Program-made: the position numbers and the translations under genes
Notes under the pieces: generated by a model
Told to the model about the DNA's origin: nothing
Seen by the model: the letters and a program-made list of their open reading frames with translations, nothing else
The model's database searches: none
In this document: piece after piece, positions 6,196 to 12,583 of the stretch
Layout of the letters: every line of letters begins with the position of its first letter
Position numbering within the stretch: position 1 is the first letter of the stretch
Assembly (NCBI GenBank): GCA_947501605.1
Contig: CANMWZ010000006.1
Coordinates: forward strand, 64,001 to 128,000
Reading direction: 5' to 3'
Source: Planctomycetota bacterium
GTDB taxonomy: Bacteria; Planctomycetota; UBA1135; UBA2386
Length of the DNA: 64,000 bases

Positions 6196-6312
6196 CCAGC
6201 AGAGGAGACATCATGATGCAGCCTCTCCGCTCGCTCCTGGTGGCCGCCCCTGCGACCACGCGGAGTGTGCGCAGCCCCTTCTCCCGCACGCTCTGAGCCG
6301 GCCCTATCTCCA

Positions 6313-8196
6313 ATGCTGCCTCGAGCCGATGCTCCAGATGTGGGCCTACCGCGCTGGTTCTGGTGGCTCCCAGCGGTCGTCTTCGCCGCATGGTTTCCGA
6401 TCGCGCCGTTCTGGGCCAGCGACGACTACTTTGCGCTGCACTGGGCCAAAGACCTCGAGCACGTGCTCGCCGACTTCACGGGACCGTGGTACGGCGCCAC
6501 CGACCTGTTCTTCTTCTACCGCCCACTGATCACGCTGAGTCTGTGGCTCGAAGTCCAGGTCGCGGGCAGCGACCCATGGCTTGCACATATCAACAACGTG
6601 CTCGTCCATGCGTGCAGCGCCACGATGGTCGCGCTGCTGTGGCGACGTTGGCTTTCGATCGGCTACGCCTTTGCTGCGGGACTCGTCTGGGGCCTGTCGC
6701 CCATCCACATCGGCGCCATTGGCTGGGCGATCGCGCGCACCGACGGGTTCAGTTGCGCATTCGCACTGATGAGCACCTTGCTGCTCGCGCGCTATGTCGA
6801 AGGGTCGACGACCCGACGGTGGCCGTCGCTGGTCTGCTTTGCGCTGGCGCTGTTGTGCAAGGAGACCGTGCTGTGCCTACCGGGCTTGCTGTTCTTGGTG
6901 GCTTTCGCCAAGCAAGACCCCGCAGCGATCACACCCCGCGCCAAGAGAGCGCTGAGCGCGATCTGGCCGCACATCGCACTCCTCATTGCCTACGTCGCCT
7001 GGCGCGTCGCGATTCTGGGGCGAATGGGAGGTTACGACGCCGCGGCCTACGAGCCTCTGCAGATGGCAGCAGGGCTCAGTGAGTACGCCTTGGGCCTCCT
7101 GAACCCTCTGTACTGGTCGCCACCTCCAGAACGGATCGAGCTGCTGCCGCGCGTCCTACACCTCGCCCTCGCACCACTCGGCTTCGCGCCGGCACTCCTG
7201 GCGGTGACCGTCCTTCTGGGCAAGGGTCGAGCCAAGACGCTCGGCTTCGCGGTCGCGTGGTTCTTGCTCGCGAGCGTGCCGATGGCCGGATTCTTCGCCC
7301 AGGCCGACAACCACCACAACCTCCGCTATTTCTGCCTCGCATTCGCGGGGTTGGCGGCGCTACTCGTGACCGGTGGGCGCGTCGCAACAGCACTCGCCCT
7401 CACATGCACTCTCCTCATGCTGGTACGCGTTCGGGTCGAGCAACACGATGCCGACATGCAGTCGCGCAGCATGCACGAGCAGTTGGTTTCGTTGCTCGAT
7501 GACGATCTGCCAGGCCCGTGGTTCGTCGCCGGCCTGCCGCATCAGAGCCAGAACGCCGTGGCACTTCAGTTTCACTTCGGGATCGACCGGATGCTGACGC
7601 CGCCGTTCGCAAACGGCACGACTCGCGTGTTTGCGCATCGGCCGACCTTCGCATTACCGGGTGCAGTAGACCTCACCGACGAGGACGGGCTGCCGATCGC
7701 GCCGCCGATGGGAACGACGCTGCTGTTCCGTGGCAGCGAACTGCTGGTGACCGTGCCACAAAAGCCACTGCCTGAACTGCCGCTCGACGCGCCTACGGAG
7801 GTCGACGCCACGAGCCCGGCACTCTATCGACTCAACAACGGTTCCGGGCCGGTGCGCTTCACGATGCCCGGCGTGCGTACGCCCGCGTTGCGCCTGACGT
7901 TCTTCACTGCAAGCGGGTATCTCGGTGCGCTGGTGCCAAACCACGCTGCCGCCGACGAGCAGGACGGCAGGCTCGACCTGCTGACTTTCTTCAAGACCGC
8001 GCAGTGGTCCGCTGGGCGCGAACTGATTCGGGGCCTCGAGCCCTCGACGATCATGGACTTGGCCACGGACTTCCCGGTGCTCATCGAAGGCGGGGACTAC
8101 CGCGACGACACCTTCACGCCGACCCACCGAGCCCGCCGCATGGTGATGTTCCGCTTCGACCGCGGCCTGCCCAAGGTGATGCGCGGCGGCGATTGA
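6313..8196 (+). CDS. Multi-pass membrane protein, GT-C-fold glycosyltransferase-like
   Basis: SDDY after the first TM, FFYRPL, ALLCKE, about 10 TM segments and a soluble C-terminal domain. Confidence 0.65.
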   Translation: MLPRADAPDVGLPRWFWWLPAVVFAAWFPIAPFWASDDYFALHWAKDLEHVLADFTGPWYGATDLFFFYRPLITLSLWLEVQVAGSDPWLAHINNVLVHACSATMVALLWRRWLSIGYAFAAGLVWGLSPIHIGAIGWAIARTDGFSCAFALMSTLLLARYVEGSTTRRWPSLVCFALALLCKETVLCLPGLLFLVAFAKQDPAAITPRAKRALSAIWPHIALLIAYVAWRVAILGRMGGYDAAAYEPLQMAAGLSEYALGLLNPLYWSPPPERIELLPRVLHLALAPLGFAPALLAVTVLLGKGRAKTLGFAVAWFLLASVPMAGFFAQADNHHNLRYFCLAFAGLAALLVTGGRVATALALTCTLLMLVRVRVEQHDADMQSRSMHEQLVSLLDDDLPGPWFVAGLPHQSQNAVALQFHFGIDRMLTPPFANGTTRVFAHRPTFALPGAVDLTDEDGLPIAPPMGTTLLFRGSELLVTVPQKPLPELPLDAPTEVDATSPALYRLNNGSGPVRFTMPGVRTPALRLTFFTASGYLGALVPNHAAADEQDGRLDLLTFFKTAQWSAGRELIRGLEPSTIMDLATDFPVLIEGGDYRDDTFTPTHRARRMVMFRFDRGLPKVMRGGD

Positions 8197-8245: not shown

Positions 8246-9067
8246 TCAGATCCCGTCGGCGAACGGCGACTCTGGCGTCAGGATCTCTTCGACATCGAGC
8301 AGGTCGCAACGGCAAGCAACGCCGAGCAGCGACGACAAGGATGGCGTCGTTCGCCCCTCATCGCCACTGATGAACTCCTTCACGTAGGTACCGTGCTGGC
8401 ACTGCACCTTCAGCTGCAGCCGCATGTCCGCGATGTACTCGAGTCCCTTCACGCTGACGAGTCGTTCGCGGTCCAGGTCGGCACGGCGATGCGAGACGCG
8501 CTGCGGCGTGCGCTGGACGACAACACCGTGAAACGCGAGCGCGGCATCGAGACTCGCCGGCAATTGTTCGAGCGCGACCTCGGCACGATAGATCTTCTCG
8601 AAGTTCGTCTGCTTCCAGTAAGCGACGCGGTTCTTGCTGACCGGCACGAACGCCGACAACTCGATCGCGCCCTCGGCCCGCTGCTCGATCTCCTTGCGCA
8701 GTTCGTCGAGGTCCACGTCGAGCTTGCGCGCACCGATCACTTCGTAGACGAACGGACGACCGCGACCGAGCATCAGCACGTCGATGTCTTCACGGCCGGC
8801 ACCGTGGAAGCGTCCCGTCCGAGCTTGGAACGCCGGCATCATGCGGCGGCCGATCAGCTCTTGGACGGATTCCTTGGTCAGCTTGCCGAAGCCCTCGCAG
8901 GGCACGCAACCTTCGCGTCGGCGGCGGTCACCCTTGCAGGTCGGGCACCAAAAAATGGTCTGCGGCAAACCGCGTCGAAGTTTGCGATACCTCGACTCGA
9001 AGAAGAGGTTGCGGCGTGAGACGCGCGGACGCGGGTTGCGCGCTGGATCGGCGGACGAGGGTTCCAC
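8246..9067 (-). CDS. pus10: tRNA pseudouridine(54/55) synthase, Pus10 family (catalytic domain only)
   Basis: RYRKLRRGLPQT, CPTC...CVPC, SVQELI, FHGAGREDIDVLMLGRGRPF, QRTPQRVSHRRADLDRER, GTYVKEFISGDEGRTTPSL, LDV. The GTG start at 9067 has TATACT 8 nt upstream. Confidence 0.88.
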   Translation of the reverse strand: MEPSSADPARNPRPRVSRRNLFFESRYRKLRRGLPQTIFWCPTCKGDRRRREGCVPCEGFGKLTKESVQELIGRRMMPAFQARTGRFHGAGREDIDVLMLGRGRPFVYEVIGARKLDVDLDELRKEIEQRAEGAIELSAFVPVSKNRVAYWKQTNFEKIYRAEVALEQLPASLDAALAFHGVVVQRTPQRVSHRRADLDRERLVSVKGLEYIADMRLQLKVQCQHGTYVKEFISGDEGRTTPSLSSLLGVACRCDLLDVEEILTPESPFADGI

Positions 9068-9140
9068 AGAGCCGCAGTATAGGCACACCCCCACGGCCGA
9101 CTGCAAGCGGGCGACAGCGACTCTGCTTGCGATCCTCGCC

Positions 9141-9566
9141 TCACTTTGTGCGGGCGGTGGAACGCGGCGCCGAAGACGGCCGACGATTGGCGTCGTCGCG
9201 GCCGGAATGGCGTTCGATGAAGCGACCGAGGAACGAGAACAGTTCCTTGCAGTCAATCGGCGTTCGCAGCAGCGAATGGATCTCGAAACGCTGCTTCTCG
9301 TTGCTCATCGCCTTTGGCTCGCGCCCAGCCACCAGTGCGACCAACTCGGTCGCCTGGTCGAACGAGCGCAGGTGCTGCAGCATCCCCATCGACTCCTGAT
9401 CGAGCGGCTCGACCCCGAGGAAGACGCAGTCGAAAGTGCGGGATCTGAGTTCGTTGATACCGCGATAGCCGGAGCCCACGGTCACCTTGATGCCAGGGAA
9501 CTGCTGCAACCCGACCTTCAGTTGGTCTCGAACCAGCGCATCCTTCTCGATCAACAAAACATCCAT
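9141..9566 (-). CDS. Atypical (pseudo-)receiver domain protein
   Basis: Receiver-like layout MDVLLIEKD...FDCVFLG...LLRTPID, but the phospho-Asp and conserved Lys positions are replaced. Confidence 0.65.
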   Translation of the reverse strand: MDVLLIEKDALVRDQLKVGLQQFPGIKVTVGSGYRGINELRSRTFDCVFLGVEPLDQESMGMLQHLRSFDQATELVALVAGREPKAMSNEKQRFEIHSLLRTPIDCKELFSFLGRFIERHSGRDDANRRPSSAPRSTARTK

Positions 9567-9699
9567 CGGCGTATCGAGCCTCCAGAGTCGTGTATCGGCC
9601 GTGCGCTAGTTCCGACGCGACCCGCGGCACCGTCCCATCCAAGGTGATGCGGCGATTGCAGGCTTGACCGCGATGGCATGGGCTGGTTCGGTGCAGGTC

Positions 9700-10647
9700 A
9701 TGAACTGCCTCGCCGGAATCGACGAAGCGGGCCTCGGGCCAATCCTCGGGCCGATGGTCGTCGCCGGCTGTGCGTTCACCGGCCCCGACGGCGCCGATCC
9801 GTGGGCGCTGCTCGAAGAGTACGTCGGCCGCACCCGCCACCAGAAGGACAAGGTCCGCGTCGCCGACAGCAAGAAGGTGCACCAAGGACCGCACGGACTG
9901 CGACGCATCGAGGAGACCGCACTCTGCTTCTGGGCCGTACTGCACGGCGAGGTCCCGACCGACGTCGCCAGCTGGCTGCAGCGGCTCGGTGTCGACCTCG
10001 ACCAACTGGCGAAGTGTCCGTGGTACGAGGGCCTCGCGCAGAAACTGCCTCTGCATGCCGACCGCCAGTGGCTCGAACTGCACGCCGAACTCGTGCGTCG
10101 GTCGATGGCCAGCGTCGGCATCGCCATGCGCACGATCGCCGTTCGCGCAGTCGACGTCGAAGAGTGGAACCTCTTGATCGCCGAGACCGACAACAAGAGC
10201 CGCGCCCACTTCCGCGCCTACGCCAGCGTGCTCGCGCGCCTGCTCGACGCGATGCCCGGTCGCGGTCACCTCGTCGCCGATCGCTGCGGCGGCCGCATGC
10301 ACTATGCGCGCGATCTCAAAGAGCTGCGCCCTGGTGTCGCCGTCGCGACTGTGCACGAAGCAACCGCGAGTTCGAGCTACCGCCTCGGTCGCGAACCTGA
10401 CGTCGTCACGGTCACGTTTGCCGAGAAGGGCGACGACCGCTCGTTCCCAACCGCGCTCGCCAGCTGTTTTGCCAAGTACGTGCGCGAGCTGATGGTGCAC
10501 GTGATGAACGACTGGTTTTGCAGCAAGGTGCCGGGCCTGCAACGCACTGCCGGTTACTACGTCGATGGCCATCGCTTTCTGCAGGACCTCGCGCCACACA
10601 TGAACGCGCTCGACCTTCCGACTCAGCGCCTCGTGCGCGTGCGGTGA
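9700..10647 (+). CDS. rnhB: Ribonuclease HII family
   Basis: AGIDEAGLGPILGPMVV, ADSKK, EKGDD..FPTALASCFAKYVRE, GYY. Confidence 0.85.
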   Translation: MNCLAGIDEAGLGPILGPMVVAGCAFTGPDGADPWALLEEYVGRTRHQKDKVRVADSKKVHQGPHGLRRIEETALCFWAVLHGEVPTDVASWLQRLGVDLDQLAKCPWYEGLAQKLPLHADRQWLELHAELVRRSMASVGIAMRTIAVRAVDVEEWNLLIAETDNKSRAHFRAYASVLARLLDAMPGRGHLVADRCGGRMHYARDLKELRPGVAVATVHEATASSSYRLGREPDVVTVTFAEKGDDRSFPTALASCFAKYVRELMVHVMNDWFCSKVPGLQRTAGYYVDGHRFLQDLAPHMNALDLPTQRLVRVR

Positions 10648-10651
10648 CACG

Positions 10652-12583
10652 ATGACGCCAGTCCTCACCGCCGCGATCGCCGCCGCCTGCGTGCTGCCGC
10701 TGTCGCTGCGACTCCTCGCAGCCCGACGAGTCGTTCTGGCCAATGTGCTCTGGCTCACGGTCGCCATCGTCATTGGCATCGCCGCACGAACGGTCACGCC
10801 CGACGTCCCGCTGGAGCCGACCTCACGTCCCGTCGAGCGGCTCGGCGACGGCTACGTCGGCAGCGGCACGTGCACCAAGTGCCATCCCGGCGAGCATGCA
10901 AGTTGGCAGCAGTCGTTCCATCGCACGATGACACAGAGCGTCTCGCGCCCGGCGCTGCGCGCGATCTTCGACGACCTGCAACTCGACTACTTCGGCGCCC
11001 CGGTGTCGCTGCACTGGCGCGGGTCCGAGCTGTTCGTGCGGTTGTCGCCCGACGCGCGCGGTCGCCGCAACGAACGCAAAGTCGTGCAGCTGACCGGATC
11101 GCACCACGCGCAAGTGCTCTGGTACGAAACCGGCAACCAGCGCGAACTCGGCATCGTGCCGATGGTCTACCGCATCGCAGAACAGCGCTGGCTGCCGTTC
11201 CCCGCCGTGTTCTTGATACCGCCGCAGCTGCGCGAGCCGCCGCTGCCGGGAACGTGGAATGGCAACTGCAACGGGTGCCACACGACCCACAGCATGCCGC
11301 GGCTCGATACCGATCGTGTCGACACCATGGCGGCGGAGTTCGGCATCGCCTGCGAGGCGTGCCATGGCCCGGGCGAGCGCCACACGACCGCGAACGCGAA
11401 CCCGCTACGTCGCTACGGCCTGCACTACGGTGGCAAGTCCAGCGACGACACCGTTGCCCAGCCAACGCGTATGTCGAGCGCGCGCAGCAACGAGGTCTGT
11501 GGGCAGTGCCACTCTGTGTCGATCGTCAAGCAGCAGCACTTCGACACATGGCGCGACCATGGCTCGCCGTTCCGGCCGGGCGAAGAACTGGCGCAGAGCC
11601 AGCTCGTGGTCTCGCCGCAGGACAGGAGTGCGCCCGAGTTGCACCGCAAGCTCGAGCAGGACCCACAGTTCTTTGCGCACACCTTCTGGAACGACGGTCT
11701 GCCGCGCGTGACCGGCCGCGAACTGCACGGCATCCGAGCCTCTCCGTGCTACGTCGGCGGCGAGGGCGAGCGTTCTCTGTCCTGCACCAGCTGCCACCGT
11801 ATGCACCGGGAGCAGGACGACGCCCGCGAACCGAGCGCGTGGGCAAGCTCGCAACTGGGCCAAGGCATGGACGGCAACGCCGCCTGCACGCAGTGCCATC
11901 CGAAGTTCGAGGATGCCACCGCTCTACAAGCGCACACCCACCACGCGCCACGATCTGCCGGCAGCTCGTGCTACGACTGCCACATGCCGCATACGAGCTA
12001 TGGGCTCATGAAGGCGATGCGCAGTCATTCGATCGAGTCGCCGAGCGTTGCCCGCGAACTGCAGACCGGCAGGCCGAACGCATGCAATCTGTGCCATCTC
12101 GATCGCACGCTGCAGTGGACGCAGAACCGACTGCAGGAGTGGTACGGAACCGAACCGAGCCCCCTCGACGAGGACCAGCGCAGCGTTGCCGCGGGGCCGC
12201 GTTGGCTGCTGCAGGGCGACGCCGGCATCCGCGCTCTCGCCGCGTGGAGCTCGGGCTATGAGCCGGCGCGCGCGGCCTCGGGCCACGACTGGCTGCAGCC
12301 GTACCTCGCGCAACTGCTCAGCGATCCCTACTACGCCGTGCGGTTCGTCGCGCGGCGGTCGCTCATGACGCTGCCCAGTGCGCCATCGCTCGCGGGCTAC
12401 GACGAGTTGGCCGAGACCGGGCGCTGCCAGGAAACCACAGCCCGCCTCCAGCTCGAGTTCGCCGCCACCTCGACTCGCAGCGCGCGCACCGAGATCCTGC
12501 TGGACGAAGGCGGGATGCAGTGGGACACCTTCCGCCGCATCCTCGCCCGCCGCGACGACCGCCCCGTGTTCCTCGCCGAATGA
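10652..12583 (+). CDS. Membrane-anchored multiheme (8x CxxCH) c-type cytochrome with helical/HEAT-like C-terminus
   Basis: CTKCH, CNGCH, CEACH, CGQCH, CTSCH, CTQCH, CYDCH, CNLCH; two N-terminal hydrophobic segments. Confidence 0.9.
   Translation: MTPVLTAAIAAACVLPLSLRLLAARRVVLANVLWLTVAIVIGIAARTVTPDVPLEPTSRPVERLGDGYVGSGTCTKCHPGEHASWQQSFHRTMTQSVSRPALRAIFDDLQLDYFGAPVSLHWRGSELFVRLSPDARGRRNERKVVQLTGSHHAQVLWYETGNQRELGIVPMVYRIAEQRWLPFPAVFLIPPQLREPPLPGTWNGNCNGCHTTHSMPRLDTDRVDTMAAEFGIACEACHGPGERHTTANANPLRRYGLHYGGKSSDDTVAQPTRMSSARSNEVCGQCHSVSIVKQQHFDTWRDHGSPFRPGEELAQSQLVVSPQDRSAPELHRKLEQDPQFFAHTFWNDGLPRVTGRELHGIRASPCYVGGEGERSLSCTSCHRMHREQDDAREPSAWASSQLGQGMDGNAACTQCHPKFEDATALQAHTHHAPRSAGSSCYDCHMPHTSYGLMKAMRSHSIESPSVARELQTGRPNACNLCHLDRTLQWTQNRLQEWYGTEPSPLDEDQRSVAAGPRWLLQGDAGIRALAAWSSGYEPARAASGHDWLQPYLAQLLSDPYYAVRFVARRSLMTLPSAPSLAGYDELAETGRCQETTARLQLEFAATSTRSARTEILLDEGGMQWDTFRRILARRDDRPVFLAE

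Follow-up and report, generated by a model that had tools for sequence, protein, structure and literature searches.

A Pus10 catalytic domain without the THUMP region in a class of Planctomycetota, likely making tRNA Psi55 in place of TruB

Few features of bacterial translation are as conserved as Psi55 in tRNA and TruB, the bacterial pseudouridine synthase acting on it. Archaeal Pus10 (TIGR01213, COG1258, PF21238), studied in M. jannaschii and P. furiosus, carries ~170-235 N-terminal residues, comprising a CxxC...CxxC Zn ribbon and a THUMP domain, ahead of a catalytic domain marked by the motifs RYRK, a Cys knuckle, GRED, QRTPxRVxHRR and GxYxKE. In human PUS10 (2V9K), too, THUMP and a Zn site are part of a large accessory domain at the N-terminus. 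The M. jannaschii enzyme makes both Psi54 and Psi55, and passages of the report by Joardar et al. (2013, PMC3753934) give a 17-mer T stem-loop as its minimal substrate. It was stated in the same passages that mutation of the N-terminal Zn cysteines resulted in less Psi54 in vitro, while in vivo the Zn-site mutant still produced Psi54 and Psi55. According to an excerpt of a 2025 review (PMC12710931), basic residues of THUMP and the Zn cysteines are crucial for Psi54 and apparently not for Psi55. As far as the excerpts of reviews of 2021, 2023 and 2025 go, Pus10 is described as absent from bacteria.

The window analysed here, a stretch of 64,000 nucleotides from the genome of an uncultured planctomycete, a placement that agrees with the names carried by close homologues and related contigs, contains an open frame on the - strand at 8246..9256 (336 aa). 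When it was aligned with 10 close homologues, conservation was found to set in at a GTG at 9067, the upstream residues being unconserved, and three of the 10 had a start codon in that column; hence, the best gene model is 8246-9067, encoding 273 amino acids. The original prediction had recognized a full set of Pus10 motifs in a protein of about this length, and all of them were located, with coordinates verified on the translation:

8246..9067, - strand: coding sequence of the THUMP-less Pus10, 273 aa, GTG start and TGA stop (from the ORF list, the Pus10_C and TIGR01213 matches, and homologue conservation for the start)
8981-8992, - strand: RYRK, which opens the Pus10 catalytic domain and is shared with archaeal Pus10; R26, Y27 and K29 invariant in two alignments, of 21 and of 60 sequences
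8897-8947, - strand: CPTC...CVPC knuckle, CxxC-x9-CxxC (C41, C44, C54, C57), with a basic DRRRRE insert; predicted zinc binding
8780-8797, - strand: GREDID; G91, R92 and D94 invariant, D94 (8786-8788) being the predicted catalytic Asp
8483-8515, - strand: QRTPQRVSHRR, a basic segment of Pus10_C; Q185, T187, P188, R190, V191, R194 and R195 invariant
8375-8392, - strand: GTYVKE, with the conserved Tyr of pseudouridine synthases; G226, Y228 and E231 invariant

Ahead of RYRK stand only ~24 residues, which are not conserved. Three of the knuckle cysteines (C44, C54 and C57) are invariant in both alignments (21 and 60 sequences) and C41 is conserved in at least 90% of the sequences; the same knuckle follows RYRK in archaeal Pus10, and the four cysteines are predicted to bind zinc. 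In the alignment with human PUS10 (chain 2v9k_A), GREDID stands opposite GREDVD, whose Asp, matching D94, we take to be the catalytic residue of the human enzyme. No substitution occurs among the 60 sequences at D94, Y228, R92, R104, R194 and R195, which are aligned with human PUS10, or in the stretch G103-R104-P105-F106.

The assignment to Pus10 and not to TruB or TruD, at scores well past anything that chance would give, was borne out by Pfam, TIGR01213, the PDB sequence search and Foldseek, all of which favoured Pus10. Pus10_C (PF21238) was the only Pfam family matched (E 7.3e-56, 189.8 bits, profile positions 1-231 of 232); no TruB-family match was obtained with Pfam or NCBIfam, a Cbf5 model reaching only 14.7 bits. 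The archaeal Pus10 equivalog of NCBIfam, TIGR01213, scored 257.8 bits (cut-off 200), with only profile positions 155-401 of 402 matched. Human PUS10 (2v9k) was the sole PDB sequence match (E 1.7e-26, query 61-264 against chain 313-522). An AlphaFold2 model, computed from an alignment of 60 sequences, had a mean pLDDT of 93.7 and a pTM of 0.86, and its top Foldseek match in the PDB was again 2v9k (E 3.5e-22, TMq 0.77, rmsd 2.5, 258 columns, 29% identity). The runners-up were TruA, with TMq 0.51-0.52, and TruB 1k8w, with 0.41 (E 5.4e-5); all TruB/Cbf5 structures stayed at or below 0.41. Family, fold and intact conserved residues thus show that the protein of 8246-9067 is the Pus10 catalytic domain alone.

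On comparison with archaeal Pus10, the catalytic domain is 39-47% identical over ~240 residues and retains each of the motifs named above. The N-terminal Zn ribbon and THUMP, by contrast, have no counterpart in the planctomycete short form, as positions 1-154 of TIGR01213 were unmatched and alignment with archaeal and with longer planctomycete forms gave the same result; the predicted loss of the THUMP region was thereby confirmed. The short form also differs in that its host is a bacterium and its pseudouridine synthase activity is predicted from sequence. Human PUS10 is the only structure matched by sequence and the best by fold, although it has the N-terminal accessory domain and the sequence alignment is limited to residues 313-522. 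Bacterial TruB shares the pseudouridine synthase core fold and the predicted job on the same nucleotide; it belongs, however, to a separate family, and the short Pus10 is without a PUA domain.

It is likely that the THUMP-less Pus10 makes tRNA Psi55 in the T-loop in place of TruB. Since a 17-mer was sufficient as a substrate for the archaeal enzyme and the N-terminal residues were reported as needed for Psi54 and apparently not for Psi55, the catalytic domain alone may be able to bind the T-arm and convert U55. The T stem-loop would be gripped by the forefinger and thumb loops together with the Cys knuckle, and U55 would be flipped out and isomerised through Asp94. Loss of the N-terminal module would leave the Psi55 activity intact and would probably weaken or remove the Psi54 activity, so that the stripped enzyme would be Psi55-specific or Psi55-biased.

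The tRNAs of the genome offer the expected substrate. Aragorn predicted 46 of them, and the T-loop TTCRANN was found in 41/46 by a fixed-offset parse and in three more with a shift of one base, while GTTCRA was present in 44/46; the remaining two predictions, of 95 nt, look false. With this T-loop, U54-U55 is available for modification. The original prediction had also raised an archaeal-type Psi54. A dual synthase of Psi54 and Psi55 resembling M. jannaschii Pus10, and hence an archaeal-type T-loop without m5U54, is nevertheless unlikely. It would fit with the lack of a true TrmA in the genome (the best score to TIGR02143 was 77 bits vs a cut-off of 334), with the rejection of the TrmFO candidate, which is MnmG (737 bits to TIGR00136), and with the two products of the M. 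jannaschii Zn-site mutant in vivo. Against it, the N-terminal Zn and THUMP residues reported to be important for Psi54 are wholly missing, a search of the genome for TrmY was negative, and contigs C5, C1 and C43 (L029-L031) encode three RlmD/RumA-type m5U methyltransferases, of which one may be a tRNA U54 methylase. Given these three and no TrmA, TrmFO or TrmY, the state of position 54 is not predictable from the genes.

The suggestion that Pus10 could replace TruB is supported by comparative genomics. The genome (4.65 Mb in 89 contigs, 91.4% complete) has exactly one Pus10_C gene and gave no match to TIGR00431 or PF01509 (TruB_N), both of which were matched in 14/14 control genomes. When 40 relatives were added, the sample covering 10 families and 34 genera, Pus10_C was found in 39/41 genomes and TruB in 0/41. 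The two relatives without Pus10, G001 (62% complete) and G021 (94% complete, 8 contigs), gave no match with a lineage-specific profile either; G021, of the same family as the genome under study, thus has neither Pus10 nor TruB. A wider sample of the class, comprising 121 genomes from 8 families and 72 genera of one order, was matched by the lineage Pus10 profile in 121/121 cases, every match starting at profile position 50-81, past the N-terminal domain. TruB_N was matched in a single one of these genomes (G313).

The phylum as a whole was sampled with 201 genomes, each at least 85% complete. Pus10_C was matched in 40 of them, 38 strongly, and TruB in 98 (TIGR00431) or 99 (TruB_N). The two occur together only in G080 and G106 (family f50, 86% complete, 460-1010 contigs), that is, in 2 of the 38 Pus10 genomes; Pus10 and TruB are therefore nearly mutually exclusive in the phylum, the counts coming from genomes related to one another. 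Neither enzyme was found in about 67 of the 201 genomes (for example G045, G049, G050, G052 and G065), and a search of five neither-enzyme genomes of 90-97% completeness with a TruB protein of the same phylum gave 0/5 matches. A missing TruB alone is, consequently, no proof of replacement, and the fact that it is not always accompanied by a visible substitute is the main caveat on the replacement reading. The position of truB was considered as a further line of evidence and rejected: no truB follows the nusA-infB-rbfA operon, which sits halfway along a 207-kb contig, but in 0/4 TruB loci of other genomes of the phylum did an rbfA homologue adjoin truB, so the gap at this site is no evidence.

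The weak Pus10_C matches in G102 (L121:490-1464, - strand) and G094 (L122:761-1780, - strand) proved to be frames of TruB-family proteins resembling archaeal Cbf5. These proteins have a GH(G/S)GTLDP motif and score weakly to bacterial TruB models, and contamination is possible; in the G094 protein, a C-terminal stretch resembles a PUA domain by eye.

The genomes without either enzyme bear on a second alternative, according to which the short Pus10 acts on another RNA (rRNA, tmRNA or mRNA) or a new target and Psi55 is either absent or made by another synthase. This is improbable. About one third of the sampled phylum genomes, and G021 within the same family, do without both TruB and Pus10, an enzyme without THUMP could have been released from its tie to tRNA, and RluA/RsuA paralogues are numerous: the genome has 11 RluA/RsuA-family matches and one fragment, as well as one TruA and two TruD, and any of these enzymes could in principle act on U55. 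The co-occurrence of Pus10 and TruB in so few genomes, however, fits one shared job; the catalytic domain keeps all conserved motifs and 39-47% identity to the tRNA-modifying Pus10 of archaea, for which the T-arm alone is a sufficient substrate according to the work on the M. jannaschii enzyme (PMC3753934).

A comparison within the phylum placed the loss of THUMP in the class. A profile of 333 positions was built from short and long Pus10 forms. Among the genomes of the phylum sample that belong to the same order as the one studied here, 11/11 matched it from position 70-76, whereas 26 of the 27 Pus10 genomes of other orders matched from position 1-14, the exception being G142 (from 78). As the THUMP-like N-terminal domain is kept in other orders, its loss marks this class. 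The long forms have an extra 95-105 residues; a sub-threshold match to Pus10_THUMP_arc was obtained for 7/10 (best 25.9 bits, cut-off 28) and one to the THUMP model for 2/10, so that one or the other model gave such a match in 8/10. These residues align with the archaeal THUMP core, and both CxxC pairs of the Zn ribbon are absent. A model of the long form L021 had a pLDDT of 94.9 and aligned to 2v9k over 417 columns, vs 258 for the short form.

Judged by sequence, the architectures appear to form a series: Zn ribbon, THUMP and catalytic domain in archaea and Bipolaricaulota; THUMP and catalytic domain in the other planctomycete orders; and the catalytic domain only in this class. The THUMP-bearing proteins of other Planctomycetota orders and of Bipolaricaulota resemble the short form in being bacterial, in residing mostly in genomes without TruB and in having a catalytic domain 33-43% identical to it. 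They differ from it in that the former keep the THUMP-like ~95-105 aa without the Zn ribbon, and the latter have the full archaeal architecture. Net charge as a compensation for THUMP loss gave no signal, the median for the catalytic domain being +7 in short (n=22) and long (n=10) forms alike. Two Bipolaricaulota MAGs (L093 and L115) contain a Pus10 with a THUMP-bearing N-terminus, with the full Zn ribbon in L093, and both sequences group with a Methanocalculus sequence in the tree described below (SH-aLRT 97). In two sequences of Iainarchaeota (DPANN; L083 and L112), the N-termini are reduced to ~70-100 aa, and an 'F(Y/H)CPxCKGxGC'-like knuckle is shared with the short planctomycete clade.

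No support was found for the separate RNA-binding partner that the original prediction had suggested. Two neighbours form the context of Pus10:

9141..9566, - strand: receiver-domain-like protein, 141 aa, directly upstream of Pus10; Pfam Response_reg 18.5 bits, below the cut-off of 30.2
9664..10647, + strand: RNase HII-like protein, 327 aa, divergent neighbour; Pfam RNase_HII E 1.9e-11, with partial Pfam and NCBIfam matches

A split Pus10, in which the catalytic domain works with a separately encoded THUMP or other RNA-binding protein, is very improbable: the small receiver-like gene adjoins Pus10 in 16 of 38 short-form loci, yet it is absent from most loci and is by Pfam not an RNA-binding fold, just two THUMP domains were detected in the genome, both fused to RlmL/Trm14-type methyltransferases (589 and 464 aa), and the search turned up no stand-alone THUMP partner. 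Slighter still are the chances that an archaeal gene was transferred and survives only as an inactive relic: although ~40% of the ancestral protein has been lost, 121/121 class genomes have an intact frame (a single stop codon occurs in 8 of the 121 full-length matched stretches and none in 113), the 60 aligned sequences show no variation in the catalytic residues, and the fold is predicted with confidence.

With respect to origin, the original prediction had proposed a horizontally acquired or relict gene. When one genome of each species was scanned, at least 587 relatives were confirmed, and the 80 best were retained: 27 of planctomycete type, two from Bipolaricaulota, one labelled Faecalibacterium and 50 from archaeal contigs. 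Among these best 80 of at least 587, the closest non-planctomycete relatives are archaeal, with 39-47% identity over the catalytic domain. Pus10 is neither a recent acquisition nor an oddity of this genome, as it is class-wide and lies in a conserved neighbourhood. The RNase HII-like gene adjoins it in 30 of the 38 short-form loci, indicating long residence in the class, and a FabA-like gene in 21/38. The gene would have been gained from archaea long ago, ahead of the radiation of the class.

A quick maximum-likelihood tree (IQ-TREE; 62 rows hand-picked from 102 loci, 252 columns, with L015 on a very long branch) united the 22 short forms (SH-aLRT 98). This clade adjoined four Iainarchaeota rows, with a support of only 88, and the long forms were scattered; a single clade of all planctomycete rows was not rejected by the AU test (p 0.268). 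A more elaborate history may be put forward tentatively, as a conjecture with rather low odds of being right: there might have been two archaeal acquisitions, a THUMP-bearing one from a euryarchaeal-type donor and a THUMP-less one from a DPANN-like (Iainarchaeota-type) donor whose N-terminus was already reduced, the latter displacing TruB class-wide and making Psi55 by the catalytic domain alone. The 21.9-kb contig labelled Faecalibacterium (L071) is probably archaeal and mis-binned, its Pus10 being of archaeal type and pairing with a methanogen sequence (SH-aLRT 100).

Of 8000 candidates scored in a protein search, 5795 were relatives; the best 120 are proteins of 219-322 aa with Pus10_C, and many of these short proteins are already named Pus10 by NCBI and JGI. 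The original prediction had allowed that THUMP-less bacterial Pus10 might be both common and already characterised; common in databases it is, while no characterising paper was found. A literature search returned no paper on bacterial Pus10 or on Pus10 in Planctomycetes, and, among the matches listed, none that pairs Pus10 with Planctomycetota, PVC, Bipolaricaulota or Acetothermia; a search combining TruB, Planctomycetes and pseudouridine gave nothing relevant, as far as titles and abstracts tell. The databases are thus ahead of the literature on bacterial Pus10, and the finding is real, moderately important and not unique to this locus.

If the replacement reading is true, the class represents a clean cross-domain, non-orthologous displacement of a core tRNA-modification enzyme. 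As sister orders keep THUMP, its class-wide loss amounts to a natural deletion experiment, and the natural pairs of short and long forms bear on the debated role of the Pus10 N-terminus, namely Psi54 vs Psi55 specificity and binding of the acceptor end. A practical consequence concerns the scoring of genome completeness in Planctomycetota, for which TruB is unsuitable as a universal marker.

A weak hint at transcription of the gene came from RNA libraries. Four metatranscriptome runs, from 3 studies, yielded contigs that match parts of Pus10 with 0-1 mismatches, and one contig spans the receiver-like gene and Pus10; the contigs give neither strand nor level, DNA carry-over is possible, and no significance attaches to the parts left without a contig. 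Further genes were observed on either side of the locus. The 643-aa protein encoded at 6265-8196 (+ strand), convergent on the Pus10 3' end, is apparently membrane-bound and has no Pfam match; its homologues adjoin Pus10 in 10 of the 38 loci. Beyond the RNase HII-like gene, the frame at 10652-12583 (+ strand) encodes a multihaem c-type cytochrome, also of 643 aa, with several CxxCH motifs (Cytochrome_C7, Paired_CXXCH_1, Cytochrom_C552).
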